A DNA stretch of 64,000 nt from Candidatus Poribacteria bacterium (GTDB taxonomy: Bacteria > Poribacteria > WGA-4E > WGA-3G), in the NCBI GenBank assembly GCA_965214095.1, contig OZ243938.1, forward strand, positions 2,016,001-2,080,000, read 5' to 3'. Under the pieces are notes generated by a model that had not been told where the DNA came from, did not search any database, and saw only the letters and a list, made by a program, of their open reading frames with translations. This document shows, one piece after another, positions 49,997-54,551 of this stretch. Made by a program: the position numbers and the translations under genes. Each line of letters opens with the position of its first letter. Position 1 is the first letter of the stretch.

Positions 49997-50676
49997 ATCC
50001 CAATAGATTTGCTTGACTTTTCTACATAGAATTTGTATAATGACACAGCATTTACATAATAACTTTGGAGCAAAACATGAGATGTTTTGGCACATTCGGT
50101 GATGCCATTCGTGGATTTCTACATACACTACGACAAATATATCTTTCAAATGCAAGCCTTAAGTGTCCATATAGTATCGGTATTGTTGGTGTAAAAAACA
50201 TCTCTCAACTTAACTATGATCGTTCCATTTCACCCTTTAACATTCAAGATGAGTTTCGGTTATCTAACTTTACACCCGCTCAAGTAGAAGAACTCTATTC
50301 ACAATACACAGAAGAAACTGGACAATCTTTGATCCCTGAGGTTATTGAAGCAGTCCACACTCAGACTGCAGGACAGCCGTTTCTTGTCAACAGATTCGGA
50401 CAAATTCTCACAGAAGAACTAAAAATACCGACATCTGAGACGATTCAGATGCATCACTTCAATAAGGCATACAAGAAAATTCTCAAAGAACGGAACACGA
50501 ATATCTCACACCTCATAACCAGCATACGCAGAGACCCACGTTTTGAGAAACTACTCATGCGTATCACATTCTATAAAAAACATATCAAGCAGTTAAACAG
50601 CAACTCGCTGCCTATTTAACACTCTTCCCGTCAAATCCCCATGCTTTAGCTTGCGGGATGTAGACGGGCAAAAAGG

Positions 50677-50705
50677 TTGACTTTGAGAAAGGAACACACT
50701 AGAAT
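50677..50705 (+). promoter_or_regulatory. Putative sigma70 promoter of tnpB
   Basis: TTGACT-N17-TAGAAT just inside the left-end hairpin. Confidence 0.6.
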
Positions 50706-50791
50706 ACGAATACCTTTTGAGTGGTGGATGTTGTTAGCATCTGCCACATTACTAACGATGGGTAAAGGGTTCTTTACCGAGAAGGCATACC

Positions 50792-51904
50792 ATGAGAAAA
50801 ACCTATAAATACAAGGGACAAAATCAAAAGAACACAATCAAGTTAGGCAATATGCTTGACGATATGCACCAGATTCATGTGCATATTATGCGATTGCAGT
50901 GCAGATATTACCGTATGTATGGCAAAAACATATCCGCCTATAGAATGAATGCACATGTTGCCAAACTAAAAAAGCGGACAAAGTCTCATTGGACAGACTT
51001 GCCGAGTCAAGTTGTGCAAGATGTTGTGCTGCGTATGGGCAAAGCTTATGATGCATTTTTCAGAAATATGAAAGATCGCAAGGCTGGCAAAACAACGTGC
51101 AAAGTCGGTAGACCGCACATCAAACCGCAACACAAATACAACTCTATGACATTTACACAGGCAGGCTATAAACTTGAAGGGAACCGTATCAAGATCAACT
51201 GTATAGATACGTGGTTCTCCTTTCACAAACATCGTGAAATAACAGGTGACATCAAAACAATAACCCTCAAGCGTGACAGGTGTGGCGATTATTGGATATG
51301 CTTTTCTTGTGATAACGTTGACGCACCGAAATCTTTTGCCAAGACAGGTGAAAGTGCTGGCTTTGATTTCGGATTGACAACCTTTCTCACAACTTCTAAT
51401 GGTAATAAGATTGTGTCTCCGCAGTTTTTGAAAAAGTCCTTGAACAAGTTGAGAACACTGAATAAAAGCGTGAGTCGTAAAGTCGAGGGATCAGGCAATT
51501 GGTATCGTGCTATCCGTGCGTTGTTGCGGCAGTATAGGAAGATAGCACGACAACGTCTTGACTGGCAGTGGAAACTTGCTACAGACCTTTGCCGGCATTT
51601 TGATACCTTGTGCTTTGAAACACTAAATATAGACGGCATGAAACGCCTCTGGGGACGCAAAATCAGTGATCTCGCTTGCTACCAGTTCATTCAAGTGTTG
51701 GCATTCAAGTGTGCTAAACACGATAAAACTTTCCTCAAAATCGGACAATGGACAGCTACAACAAAACCTTGTAGCAACTGCGGACACACAAACGATAAAC
51801 TAACACTTTCAGATAGACACTGGATATGTCCTTCGTGCAATACTGAACACGATAGAGACATCAATGCAGCTATCAATATCAAACAGGCAGGCTTAGCTGC
51901 CTAA
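50792..51904 (+). CDS. tnpB: RNA-guided endonuclease TnpB
   Basis: RuvC-I GFDFGL, RuvC-II FETLN, zinc finger CSNC...CPSC, RuvC-III DRDINAAINI; all three acidic residues present. Confidence 0.95.
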   Translation: MRKTYKYKGQNQKNTIKLGNMLDDMHQIHVHIMRLQCRYYRMYGKNISAYRMNAHVAKLKKRTKSHWTDLPSQVVQDVVLRMGKAYDAFFRNMKDRKAGKTTCKVGRPHIKPQHKYNSMTFTQAGYKLEGNRIKINCIDTWFSFHKHREITGDIKTITLKRDRCGDYWICFSCDNVDAPKSFAKTGESAGFDFGLTTFLTTSNGNKIVSPQFLKKSLNKLRTLNKSVSRKVEGSGNWYRAIRALLRQYRKIARQRLDWQWKLATDLCRHFDTLCFETLNIDGMKRLWGRKISDLACYQFIQVLAFKCAKHDKTFLKIGQWTATTKPCSNCGHTNDKLTLSDRHWICPSCNTEHDRDINAAINIKQAGLAA

Positions 51905-52017
51905 AGTGGAGATGACGTGAGATGGGTGATCCTTTTGGAGAAACGCTGTTGTCAAGGAAGCACAAGCCCCAACCTTTAGGTTGTGGGTCACTATGACAAC
52001 TGGAAAATGCAAGAGAG
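51850..52017 (+). ncRNA. Putative TnpB reRNA (omega-RNA) with flank-derived guide from 51998
   Basis: Inferred from standard TnpB biology: the RNA overlaps the tnpB 3' end and the right end, and the guide is the flank AACTGGAAAATGCAAGAGAG. The 5' boundary is approximate. Confidence 0.6.
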
Positions 52018-52022
52018 GGATT

Positions 52023-52276
52023 TTACGTCGTGTTTGATTATCTTCAGGTACCCAAGCCTAAAAGCATGGGATTGTGTTAATCTTCTGCCAGGCTTGATGT
52101 TCTTCGGTCTTGGCTCGTAACTTTACCTGTATGCCACCGAGGGGTCCCAGCGACCCACGATACAGAACCTCAGACACTTCCGACTTCGGAAGTTGTTCGA
52201 GCGAACTATCGTCTTCGAGTTACTTGGACACGGATATAATCAACGTGCCCGATGCAAGACACTTCCGACTTGCTTG
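52023..52276 (-). ncRNA. Putative stand-alone guide RNA transcribed from the 332-bp element
   Basis: Lies downstream of TTGACA-N17-TATTAT; no convincing ORF; internal hairpins; runs through the right-end hairpin into the flank. Function is inferred. Confidence 0.45.
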
Positions 52277-52374
52277 GACATATAATAACAGACTTGACGT
52301 TTTCTGTCAAGCAAAATATAGGAACGGGCATTCCTCCCACACCTAAAGAAGTGGGCTTCCTGTCTAAAACGTTG
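52043..52374 (-). mobile_element. 332-bp non-coding IS200/IS605-type element inserted 3' of TCAC (minus strand)
   Basis: Left hairpin CCCACTTCTTTAGGTGTGGG, right hairpin CCCATGCTTTTAGGCTTGGG then ...TGAA; clean removal restores the host codon CGT; no TSD and no transposase or TnpB ORF. Confidence 0.8.
52282..52310 (-). promoter_or_regulatory. Near-consensus sigma70 promoter inside the 332-bp element
   Basis: Minus strand TTGACA(52310-52305)-N17-TATTAT(52287-52282); the -35 lies within a CTTGAC-N7-GTCAAG palindrome. Confidence 0.7.
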
Positions 52375-52508
52375 GTGAGAATGCTATTTCAAAGGTTGAA
52401 ACAGATACGTATGATGGGTGTACCATACAGAGCTATGTTATTCCTGTCCTGCAACAACGACCATCCCAGGTGGTCTAATAATTTTCAAAGCAATATGCTG
52501 AGACAACT

Positions 52509-54551
52509 ATGAAACGAGAAAATATGCAAAAACAGATAATACAAGATAAGACTTTCACGAACTCAATCGGAATGCGGTTCGTAAGAATAGAATCCGGAAC
52601 CTATATGATGGGTTCTGCGGATGCGAACCTTTCAGATGAACTAACCTCAGGTAAAGAATACTTGAAAGATGGAGATTGGGATGAACAACCTGTACATCAG
52701 GTGACGCTCAGCACTCCCTTTCACATTGGAATCCATCAGGTAACGAATGCTCAGTATGAGGAATTCGATCCTTCACATAGCGAACAACGTGGAAAAATCG
52801 GCTTCTCAAAAGACGATGATGAGGCAGTTGTTTTTGTGGATTGGCACGAAGCGACACGTTTTTGCGAATGGCTCTCCGAAAAGGAGGGGCTCCCGTACCG
52901 TTTGCCAACAGAAGCGGAATGGGAATATGCATGCCGTGCAGGAACCATAACCCATTACCATATAGGTGATACTTTACCTGATGAATTTCATAAAAATGTT
53001 TGTGAGAGTTGGTATCCGGATGAGGGACGGAGTCGTGGTGCTGAGGAAATTGTGCCATTACACGTCGGCAAAACAACACCGAATGCATGGGGTATCTACG
53101 ACATGCACGGGAACGTTGAAGAGTGGTGTCGAGACTGGTATGGTCCCTATGAAGCACATCCACAGACCGATCCGAGTGGACGAGAATCAGGTTTATATCG
53201 TGTTACTCGGGGTGGTAGTCACTCAACTTTACTATGTTATCTGCGTTCTGCAAACCGTATGGGTGCTGTGCCTGAAGATAAACATTGGTATATTGGGTTT
53301 CGAGTTGTTTGTGGGGAGATGCCAGAAAAACCCAACCTATTGCCATCACCAAAGGTAGCGTTATGGGGACGTGATGTCAAGCAGGAGAAGACAGATGTTC
53401 CTGCCCCAGAAAAACCGCATTTTGCAGAACCGATTCCGTTTGTCCGTATTCCTGATGGTTCGAACGGTCCGCTATTTACAAATCATAACCATGTTCCTGC
53501 GATAGTAGAATGTCCGAATGGAGATATGTTTGCTGCGTGGTATTCGTGTGTAACTGAACGAGGAAGGGAATTGACAGTCGCTGCAAGTCGTTTGCGTTTG
53601 GGAGAATCGGAATGGGAGATAGCTGAACCGTTTTGGGGACCACCTGATAGAAACAACCATGCAACCTCGCTTTGGTGCAATGAAGATGGGAGGATTTACC
53701 ATTTCAACGGACTATCAGCAGCTGCGACGTGGGGTCCTTTAGCATTAGTGTTACGACATTCCGATGATAATGGGACAACATGGTCAAAACCACGTTTGAT
53801 CTCGCCTGAGCATAGACTGCGTCACATGCCTATCGCATCTGTTTTCCGAAGACAGGATGGTTCAATTCTCTTTGCTTGTGATGCTGTGAGTGGTGGAAAC
53901 GGCGGCACGGTCGTTTGGATAAGTGATGATGACGGAGAGACGTGGTATGAACCTGGTGCTGGTCAACCAATACCAGATTTTGCTGCGGGTAATAGTGGTG
54001 GATGGATTGCTGGTATTCACGGAGCTGTCGTGGAATTGTCTGATGGTCGATTGATGGGGTTTGGACGTGGTGATACGATTGATGGTCGCATGCCGAAAAG
54101 CATCTCTGAAGATGGTGGAAAAACATGGCAATATAGTGCAAGTTCGTTTCCACCTGTTTCTGGTGGACAACGGTGTGTATTCTTTCGACTTCAGGAAGGA
54201 CCGATTTTTCTTGCATCCTTCACAGGAAGCCGTAAAACACCCGAAACAATGCCTATCGTGGACGAATCGGGTAATGAACGCCATGTAACTGGACTATTTG
54301 GTGCACTCTCTTATGATGATGGAGAAACTTGGACAAATATTAGACTGATTTCAGACGACGGTGCTGACAGAGAAATTGAAACAATGGATGGTCGACCTTT
54401 TGTTATGGGATTGAATAGTGCAGAACCGGGTGGGTATCTTGGTGTTACCCAAGGAAGAAACGGTATCATTCATCTCATTAGCAGTAAACAGCACTATCGG
54501 TTTAACTATGCTTGGTTGAAGGAATCGCCACCCTCTCAACAGCAATCATAG
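52509..54551 (+). CDS. FGE-sulfatase-like domain fused to a BNR/sialidase-like propeller
   Basis: FTNSIGMRFVRI, RLPTEAEWEYACRAG, DMHGNVEEW; Asp-boxes SDDNGTTW, SDDDGETW, SEDGGKTW, SYDDGETW. Confidence 0.85.
   Translation: MKRENMQKQIIQDKTFTNSIGMRFVRIESGTYMMGSADANLSDELTSGKEYLKDGDWDEQPVHQVTLSTPFHIGIHQVTNAQYEEFDPSHSEQRGKIGFSKDDDEAVVFVDWHEATRFCEWLSEKEGLPYRLPTEAEWEYACRAGTITHYHIGDTLPDEFHKNVCESWYPDEGRSRGAEEIVPLHVGKTTPNAWGIYDMHGNVEEWCRDWYGPYEAHPQTDPSGRESGLYRVTRGGSHSTLLCYLRSANRMGAVPEDKHWYIGFRVVCGEMPEKPNLLPSPKVALWGRDVKQEKTDVPAPEKPHFAEPIPFVRIPDGSNGPLFTNHNHVPAIVECPNGDMFAAWYSCVTERGRELTVAASRLRLGESEWEIAEPFWGPPDRNNHATSLWCNEDGRIYHFNGLSAAATWGPLALVLRHSDDNGTTWSKPRLISPEHRLRHMPIASVFRRQDGSILFACDAVSGGNGGTVVWISDDDGETWYEPGAGQPIPDFAAGNSGGWIAGIHGAVVELSDGRLMGFGRGDTIDGRMPKSISEDGGKTWQYSASSFPPVSGGQRCVFFRLQEGPIFLASFTGSRKTPETMPIVDESGNERHVTGLFGALSYDDGETWTNIRLISDDGADREIETMDGRPFVMGLNSAEPGGYLGVTQGRNGIIHLISSKQHYRFNYAWLKESPPSQQQS

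Follow-up and report, generated by a model that had tools for sequence, protein, structure and literature searches.

Gene-less members of the IS200/IS605 group that carry an RNA gene have been described before. According to the preprint of Meers et al. (2023, PMC10055086), PATEs of this group 'often encode omegaRNAs', which can only be used in trans, and the elements move as top-strand single-stranded DNA. Cutting of the empty joint, so that the element is restored, is the published logic of elements with TnpB and is extended to PATEs by the authors. The omegaRNA PATEs of the ISGst families of Geobacillus stearothermophilus share several properties with the element reported here. Both are gene-less, have IS605-type ends and rely, or would rely, on a TnpA in trans, and both carry a non-coding RNA by the right end that would need a TnpB in trans. 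However, the RNA of the ISGst PATEs is a recognisable scaffold of resident tnpB elements, whereas the RNA core found here in Poribacteria matches no resident TnpB 3' end. It has a pseudoknotted fold of its own, which is conserved over two families, and no relative linked to tnpB was found for it in the loci examined. A gene-less IS200/IS605 element whose RNA would be used in trans is a kind of element already in print, and the initial annotation of the locus had pointed to related non-autonomous elements and stand-alone omega-RNAs as known.

Two further published systems are close enough for a comparison. Guide RNAs of TnpB and Cas12 characteristically contain a pseudoknot, which in ISDra2 forms between three nucleotides right in front of the guide (nt -5..-3) and a loop further upstream (Nakagawa et al. 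2023, PMC10097598). As described there, the ISDra2 omegaRNA is a long structured top-strand RNA whose scaffold stops at the right end of the transposon and whose guide lies beyond it; several stems and a pseudoknot are present, and the guide-adjacent hairpin is also the right-end hairpin of the transposon. The RNA reported here resembles this description in its stems, its pseudoknot and its strand, and would do so in the position of its guide. In contrast, the ISDra2 RNA overlaps the 3' end of tnpB, whereas the element reported here has no tnpB and its helices P4 and P6 lie about 100 nt upstream of the end. The second system is a PATE with IStron ends in Clostridioides difficile (Zedaveinyte et al. 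2023, preprint, 10.1101/2023.11.20.567912), which is also gene-less, has IS605-type ends and carries RNA-level functions only. These IStron derivatives contain parts of a group I intron and depend on host transcription, whereas the element reported here shows no match to an intron family and has its own promoter.

No paper joining Poribacteria and TnpB was found by literature search. Stand-alone omegaRNA loci of OMEGA systems, which have no adjacent effector gene and are presumed to act in trans, were reportedly described by Altae-Tran and colleagues in 2021 and are said to have been recognised by their likeness to effector-linked omegaRNAs. Unlike these, the RNA reported here could not be linked to any effector by likeness. 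What sets the present case apart is the lack of a traceable parent, a pseudoknotted fold backed by covariation, conservation across two families, and ends that have been re-fitted to the local IS605 family.

The locus lies in a window of 64,000 nucleotides, which is the whole stretch of DNA analysed, from contig OZ243938.1 of a sponge-symbiont member of the Poribacteria. Its features are collected in Table 1. The preferred reading, to which a probability of roughly 0.5 is assigned, is that of a gene-less, PATE-type member of the IS200/IS605 group whose sole cargo is an RNA gene, with the RNA acting in trans as a guide of the TnpB type. Membership in the IS200/IS605 group as a PATE is well supported, and a guide-RNA function, which the layout of the element suggests, is plausible.

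Table 1. Positions of the features of the element and its surroundings within the window.
Feature	Position	Strand	Remarks
Gene-less IS200/IS605-type element	52043..52374	minus	332 bp; borders placed where the likeness of the 5 copies stops
Would-be TAM/target TCAC (CTCAC here)	52375..52378	minus	directly 5' of the left end
Left end	52336..52374	minus	19 nt ending GGAAG, then imperfect hairpin
Left-end hairpin CCCAC..GTGGG, TTTAG-type loop	52355-52336	minus	arms change in step between relatives
Promoter TTGACA-17-TATTAT	52282..52310	minus	TTGACA 52310-52305, TATTAT 52287-52282
5' accessory hairpins P1 (52273-52254) and P2 (52250-52226)	52226..52273	minus	arms co-vary by eye; replaced or absent in some relatives
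Word AAGTCGGAAGTGTCT, twice	52271-52257 and 52186-52172	minus	read from the sequence
Conserved RNA core	52100..52225	minus	covariation counts; R1 146 bits
Hairpin CTTCCGAAGTCGGAAG	52192-52177	minus	read from the sequence
Variable linker / helix P7, ending ACAAT	52071..52099	minus	pairing of P7 with the 3' arm of the right hairpin by eye only
Right end	52043..52070	minus	hairpin and tail
Right-end hairpin CCCATGC..GCTTGGG, T-T mismatch	52070-52051	minus	judged by eye
Right-end tail TACCTGAA	52050-52043	minus	last 8 nt of the element
3' flank GATAATCAAACACGACGTAA	52023..52042	minus	20 nt; would-be guide if the RNA reads through
Part of the neighbouring tnpB element (not part of the mini-element)	50792..51997	plus	ORF 50792-51904 (370 aa) and 93-nt 3' region/right end

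The initial annotation had described a minus-strand insert of 332 bp with subterminal hairpins at both ends, located after TCAC without a target duplication, and an interior with a repeated word and a hairpin. The insert is present as described and all five copies agree with it, the word and the hairpin were both located in the element, and in every detail that was checked this description of the sequence is correct. The interval of 52023-52374 given there includes the right flank of 20 nt (52023-52042), and the element proper runs from 52374 to 52043. The genome contains five full-length copies with 96-100 % identity, so the element is not single-copy. TCAC precedes all of them (CTCAC in three, TTCAC in two), CCTGAA is their common terminus, and their likeness is lost at once on both sides. 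The five flanks are unrelated, flank sequence is not repeated and a target duplication is absent; all copies are intergenic. The copy number, the fixed target and the unrelated flanks bear out the proposal of a mobile, protein-free IS200/IS605-type element. The same applies to the proposal that a different would-be guide is gained with each insertion, since the 3' flank differs from copy to copy and each is unique in the genome. For the copy in the window, the first 14, 16 and 20 nt of this flank each occur only once in the chromosome. In a contig of run X17, the likeness to the element ends exactly at 52043. A clean empty site was not found with the flanks of the copy at C1:3328842-3329176 in about 40 genomes of the genus, where the neighbouring genes are conserved and the spacer is too diverged.

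Terminal inverted repeats are absent, and the imperfect subterminal hairpins at both ends have arms that co-vary among relatives. Base complementarity just 5' of the hairpins is how the TnpA of IS608 picks its cleavage sites. The relatives, whose target is TTCAT or TCAC, were compared by eye in an alignment in which some rows are poorly or doubtfully aligned. At the left end, the last target base and the base preceding the hairpin are complementary in 20 of 23 readable rows (C with G in 7/7, T with A in 13/16). At the right end, the same holds for the final base of the element and the base preceding the hairpin in 21 of 26 rows. The copy in the window shows complementarity at both ends, between the last target base and the G of GGAAG that precedes the left hairpin, and between the final base of the element and the last base of ACAAT, which precedes the right hairpin.

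Only one family of Y1 transposases occurs in the genome, with four full Y1_Tnp genes and a partial one. All four full tnpA genes reside in elements that also encode a TnpB of 421 aa, and the target of these elements is TTCAC in four of four cases. Their right end, GGGTAGTTGAA versus GGGTACCTGAA in the mini-element, is 82-88 % alike over 33-34 nt. This fits the suggestion in the initial annotation that TnpA is provided in trans, as the only Y1 family of the genome sits on four elements with the same target and a similar right end. The left-end hairpin context and the promoter layout are also common to gene-less and 421-type elements. TCAC is likewise paired with TGAA ends in the gene-less and the tnpA+tnpB elements of G020, which belongs to the same genus. 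Gene-less elements in other genera use TTCAT or TCAC and terminate with TTGAC; in those genera, the right ends of 421-like tnpB elements terminate with TTGAC at 10 of 10 loci, and their targets, readable at 7 of the 10, are TTCAT in four and (T/A)TCAC in three. Since the ends, the promoter layout and the target co-vary with the 421-aa IS605 family between genomes, the Y1 TnpA of this family is likely the mobiliser, and the 421-type family the likely source of the transposase. In G138, the one tnpA+tnpB element that was read has a different end type, TTTAT ... GTATGTCAA. The ends that the mini-element has in common with the 421-aa family are fully and equally well explained by a shared TnpA alone.

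The promoter just inside the left end, which the initial annotation had called near-perfect, scores 11 of 12 as a sigma-70-type promoter, has a TG ahead of the -10 box and is conserved in relatives. A promoter score of at least 10 of 13 was reached by 35 of 61 distinct family members, compared to 6 of 183 control windows. Transcription would be expected to begin near 52275, and about 233 nt without a conserved reading frame follow the promoter. The spacing between promoter and core falls into three discrete classes, which are about 60 nt in combination with P1 and P2, about 42 nt where a different 5' stem is present, and 4-6 nt in the absence of either. Because three promoter distances occur and the accessory hairpins are variable, the core together with the 3' part looks like the functional unit. 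On the minus strand, no terminator-like site was found between the core and the 3' flank, so the RNA would run through the right end into the flank. In each of five RNA-labelled runs, available as assembled contigs, the fraction of sampled words present was 0.04. Contigs that are 80-95 % alike to the core segment 52111-52273 occur in the RNA libraries X17 and X16, although such contigs do not establish transcription, strand or ends. Likewise, pieces of the left end (52313-52362) are present in contigs of all four RNA libraries examined, which is no evidence for transcription.

The fold of the core comprises a long-range helix (GUAAC/GUUAC), a three-way junction of P3, P3a and P3b, the hairpin P5, and the helices P4 and P6, which are interleaved as a pseudoknot. 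Relatives found by DNA search are 68-97 % identical, with an interior that is better preserved than the ends. In a first, unfitted alignment of 34 sequences, 95.8 % of the cells pair, versus 32-46 % in slid controls, and 15 of 40 pairs are compensatory. The covariance model R1 added a second family of Poribacteria. In the resulting alignment of 62 distinct sequences, whose nested helices were fitted to R1 and lean towards it, 94.5 % of the cells pair, versus 30-45 % in slid controls, and 24 of 40 pairs are compensatory; none of 500 shuffles of this alignment reached any of five structure measures. All six pairs of the pseudoknot helix P4, which lies outside of R1, changed on both sides, and the long-range helix has two independent compensatory changes. 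P1, P2, P7 and the hairpin of the right end were assessed by eye, outside these counts. As G-U cells number 140 and A-C cells 47, the folded strand is the strand behind the promoter. On this comparative evidence, the interior is regarded as a real, conserved pseudoknotted RNA encoded on the promoter strand. The statement of the initial annotation that about 230 nt of structured non-coding sequence fill the interior is upheld by the pairing and the compensatory changes, with slid and shuffled controls being far lower.

The tail could form a pairing UACCUG/CAGGUA in the element in the window, which competes with P4 and, judged by eye, is not retained in the UAGUUGAC subgroup. A covarying ISDra2-like pairing of the tail with an upstream loop was not found here. 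The RNA has no counterpart among the families of Rfam 15, with zero matches at E<=10 for positions 52000-52400 and zero at E<=1 for 50000-53500. For four diverse relatives, the same search returned an unrelated match of 19.8 bits elsewhere in one locus and nothing else. A survey from 2017 reportedly contains an RNA motif named 'Poribacteria-1'. If this motif is part of Rfam 15, it does not match these elements, and nothing was found by a literature search on that name.

These data bear on three explanations in which the interior would not act as an RNA gene. One possibility is an inert deletion remnant, an ordinary MITE or PATE, whose conserved interior would reflect nothing but the young age of the copies. 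The five copies are indeed 96-100 % alike, and conservation within the genome therefore says little. However, the 24 compensatory pairs extend across two families of Poribacteria with identities down to below 70 %, the slid and shuffled controls argue against covariation as an alignment artefact, the interior is better conserved than the ends, and no parent from which a deletion could have arisen was found in the loci and genomes searched. This explanation is considered very improbable. A small protein encoded on the bottom strand of the interior, where stop-free frames of 60-90 codons are frequent, would explain the stop-free bottom-strand frame of 42-91 codons that most of 34 relatives have. 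Against this, the block GGTGGC..GTAAAG is read in different frames in the 'mini' element and in L017, a conserved start is absent, insertions of 11, 23-24 and 3 nt occur among relatives, and the changes are compensatory in helices rather than synonymous. A coding interior was rejected, as the open frame is not kept between subfamilies, a start is not conserved and the substitutions are of the structure type; it is the most remote of the explanations considered.

The third explanation is that the fold acts as DNA, in the excised top-strand single-stranded circle, for example by helping TnpA or second-strand synthesis. The folded strand is the top strand, which is the strand that moves (PMC10055086). 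Covariation alone does not separate DNA from RNA. However, a sigma-70-type promoter precedes the fold at a fixed short distance in three 5' arrangements, and pairs of the G-U type, which are weak in DNA, are frequent. Furthermore, TnpA is not known to require pseudoknotted multi-helix folds as large as this one, and in published work it makes use of the end hairpins only. A function of the fold in the excised circle is therefore regarded as improbable.

The distribution of the RNA was surveyed with R1 in two samples of 151 genomes each, in which kin are not independent of one another. It was found in 44 of 151 genomes of the order, in 3 of 17 genera, and in 44 of 151 genomes of a phylum-wide Poribacteria sample, in 3 of 22 genera. 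In the three genera, 5/37, 27/57 and 11/20 genomes bear the RNA. The number of R1 matches per genome reaches 49 in G138, and G143 has 23. The conservation of the RNA spans two families of Poribacteria. An exact two-motif pattern was additionally searched in one genome per species for 185,579 species and yielded 30 stretches, all of which are gene-less Poribacteria loci. In JGI metagenome contigs, zero matches and then two chance matches of 7.2 bits were obtained, i.e. nothing real, and viral contigs gave zero matches. The scans of species genomes, JGI contigs and viral contigs used exact words, which diverged relatives would escape.

A longer parent containing tnpB, which the initial annotation had led one to expect, was not found in any of the sets of loci examined. 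An adjoining tnpB was absent from all 29 loci of relatives within 1.5 kb on either side, from all 16 further loci within 2 kb (one of these loci being only 169 bases long), and from all 30 stretches of 8 kb, of which only one has any tnpB, at a distance of 1.7 kb. The genome itself has 22 TnpB-type matches. With the filters switched off, R1 scored no more than 9.1 bits on 12 TnpB-bearing loci, one per tnpB family of the genome, compared to 146 bits on the mini-element itself. A sequence profile of the family matched only the last 40 nt or so, i.e. the right end, in ten of eleven 421-type 3' ends and the last 65 nt or so in the eleventh (L165); after removal of the last 45 nt of these 3' ends, there was no match. 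Pairwise comparisons with 421-type 3' ends gave z values of 2.6 and 0.5 for two pairs, which are marginal and nil, respectively. Shared words noticed by eye in the 421-type 3' ends (a GC hairpin with a GCUG loop, GGUGG, GUUAC, CGAAG) were discarded as candidates because they were marginal in one of these pairs and no better than shuffles in the other. In G138, all 45 matches to the 3' module of the element lie at most 200 nt from a match to the core, which means that the module is not part of any tnpB element in that genome. Co-occurrence cannot discriminate a partner either, since the 421-aa-type TnpB is present in 118 of 151 genomes, among them genomes that have the RNA and genomes that lack it. 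A close 421-type TnpB is missing from three genomes in which the RNA occurs (G018, G013 and G099), of which two are fragmented drafts; the single copy in G099 looks decayed. The proposal of a guide-RNA cassette that works in trans has thus stood in part: mobility, promoter, structured RNA, fixed target and a TnpA in trans agree with it, but no tnpB parent was found in the loci examined and the core is unlike the 12 TnpB loci.

The main rival is a true mini-transposon whose RNA is guide-independent cargo that would hitch-hike on the IS605 ends and the promoter. Such a cargo might be a ribozyme, an RNA with a regulatory or scaffold role, or the RNA part of a particle without TnpB. This is possible, although somewhat unlikely, and it gains its weight from the searches for a similar TnpB guide scaffold, which gave none. 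The core is unlike every resident TnpB 3' region searched and every Rfam family, and the RNA was never joined to tnpB in the loci examined, as would suit such a cargo. In addition, the ends are swapped around a constant core among relatives, and the best-conserved part (52100-52225) stops about 57 nt short of the right end, with a variable stretch between. However, the core occurs only inside such elements and always points from the left to the right end behind the left-end promoter. The lack of a terminator between core and right end and the fixed layout would have no obvious reason for guide-independent cargo, and neither would the constant proximity of 3' module and core in all 45 instances in G138. 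Furthermore, the copy number and the patchy spread within the three genera look selfish rather than host-serving.

In the preferred reading, the RNA as a trans-acting guide, the promoter at the left end would make an RNA of about 233 nt that runs through the right end into the flank. The scaffold together with some 16-20 nt of flank would then be a guide (omega) RNA of the TnpB type. Directed by it, a TnpB encoded at another locus could cut the empty joint of TCAC and flank that excision leaves behind, and recombination with a sister copy would restore the element at the cut joint. Under these assumptions, the element would be a selfish gene for a guide RNA, dependent on borrowed TnpA and TnpB. 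The best candidate for the TnpB partner is the 421-aa clade, as it shares the target motif TTCAY, a guide-proximal hairpin with tail, and the host range, although a shared TnpA would account for all of these equally well.

Alternatively, the RNA may not be a leftover of any TnpB element, and the element may belong to an independent and ancient Poribacteria lineage of RNA-only transposons, in which a pseudoknotted RNA gene of about 180-230 nt captured IS605 ends and a promoter and was repeatedly re-fitted to the local TnpA. This is a doubtful possibility. The RNA of such a lineage would either be a guide scaffold that hijacks an unrelated resident TnpB or work with an unrecognised effector. If it were true, the element would represent either a free-living guide-RNA parasite or a new RNA-protein system on IS605 ends.

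Mini-transposons with a guide RNA are the simplest test of whether TnpA, TnpB and guide RNA are separable modules. The RNA module described here is old, with strong covariation in two families, and abundant, with up to 49 matches per genome; it is gene-less in all loci examined and untraceable to a nuclease gene. If the RNA uses a resident TnpB, this would show that a TnpB can still serve a scaffold that has diverged widely from its parent or was taken over from another source, which would be useful for the design of guide scaffolds. If it does not use TnpB, a new RNA function rides on IS605 ends. The interest would rise sharply if the partner were an unrelated TnpB or not a TnpB. In both cases, bench tests can build on the covariance model of the family, on its defined ends and natural promoter, and on the small number of candidate partners.

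Two other types of element in the same genome provide a comparison. The neighbouring tnpB element, with the Pfam domains PF07282 and PF01385, lies tail to tail with the mini-element at a distance of 45 bp, and its right end at 51997 was defined from three copies. It has a TTTAAC-type target and a different right end, as the initial annotation had noted in stating that interior and target of the mini-element differ from those of the adjacent tnpB element. The other type, family B, is also gene-less and has four copies of about 400 bp (C1:781029-781440 and three more) with the target TTCAT, and its left end and promoter layout are like those of the mini-element. In contrast to the mini-element family, for which no such parent was found in the loci examined, family B is traceable to resident tnpB 3' ends, as is typical of an ordinary guide-bearing PATE in this genome. 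Its last 107 nt or so are 77-78 % identical to the 3' ends of the tnpB elements encoding proteins of 378, 382 and 341 aa, and on this likeness family B is classified as an ordinary deletion-type PATE with a known parent.

The conserved core of the RNA predicted for the mini-element, a gene-less 332-bp IS200/IS605-type unit, is preceded by accessory hairpins, and the loop of the first of these (P1) is a copy of the 3' strands of the core helices P3b and P3. As such a duplicate, the P1 loop could compete for the 5' strand of P3b and give rise to an alternative fold. This second copy of the 15-mer is absent in relatives that have a different P1 or lack this hairpin. An identical 11-nt insertion is found in the P3b loop of two relatives (loci L048 and L061), and a TTT insertion is found in helix P6b of three or four relatives; both are sites at which insertions are tolerated in the fold.

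The neighbouring tnpB element has a TTTAAC-type target and a right end terminating in GGGTCACTATGAC. Since it and the mini-element are arranged tail to tail, the 45-bp spacer between them (window 51998-52042) is common to both would-be guides, which would be read from opposite strands.

A second gene-less IS605-type family of about 400 bp (family B; n=4 in the own genome) has the target TTCAT, and its left end and promoter are arranged like those of the mini-element. Over its last ~107 nt it shares 77-78% identity with the 3' ends of tnpB elements whose ORFs are 378, 382 and 341 aa long. Because of this resemblance, family B is classed as an ordinary guide-bearing palindrome-associated transposable element (PATE).

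Locations of the features (C1, own-genome chromosome coordinates)
Feature	Location	Strand	Remarks
Intact tnpB element, 370/382-aa ORF	window 50792-51997	plus	3 copies in genome
15-mer AAGTCGGAAGTGTCT	window 52172-52186 and 52257-52271	minus	two occurrences
Family B copies	C1:781029-781440; 5082174..; 959180-959560 (-); 3279140-3279527 (-)		own genome, outside window
Large TnpB-like ORF, 528-568 aa	C1:3413998-3415704; 2451771-2453366; 2759589-2761175; 3207780-3209375		four copies
Large TnpB-like ORF, fifth copy	C1:3362215-3363663		broken

The 528-568-aa TnpB-like copies share a conserved 3' tail of ~50 nt with the terminus ...TCATCGG, and their left border is GGTTGAG. In the own-genome IS605 family encoding TnpA and a 421-aa TnpB, one copy (locus L071) carries, in the region C1:4229750-4230080, an extra insert of ~130 nt in the loop of its left-end hairpin; this insert is missing from the remaining three copies.

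Small repeats were also observed near or inside the RNA-only elements. A repeat of ~140-150 bp, present in dozens of copies across the genus, adjoins copy 4 of the mini-element (L004:1931-2080, about C1:3329272-3329421). In the Poribacteria genus g11, a short palindromic insert (…TTCACTAGTGAA…) is nested in the RNA-only elements at loci L114, L118, L124 and L125.
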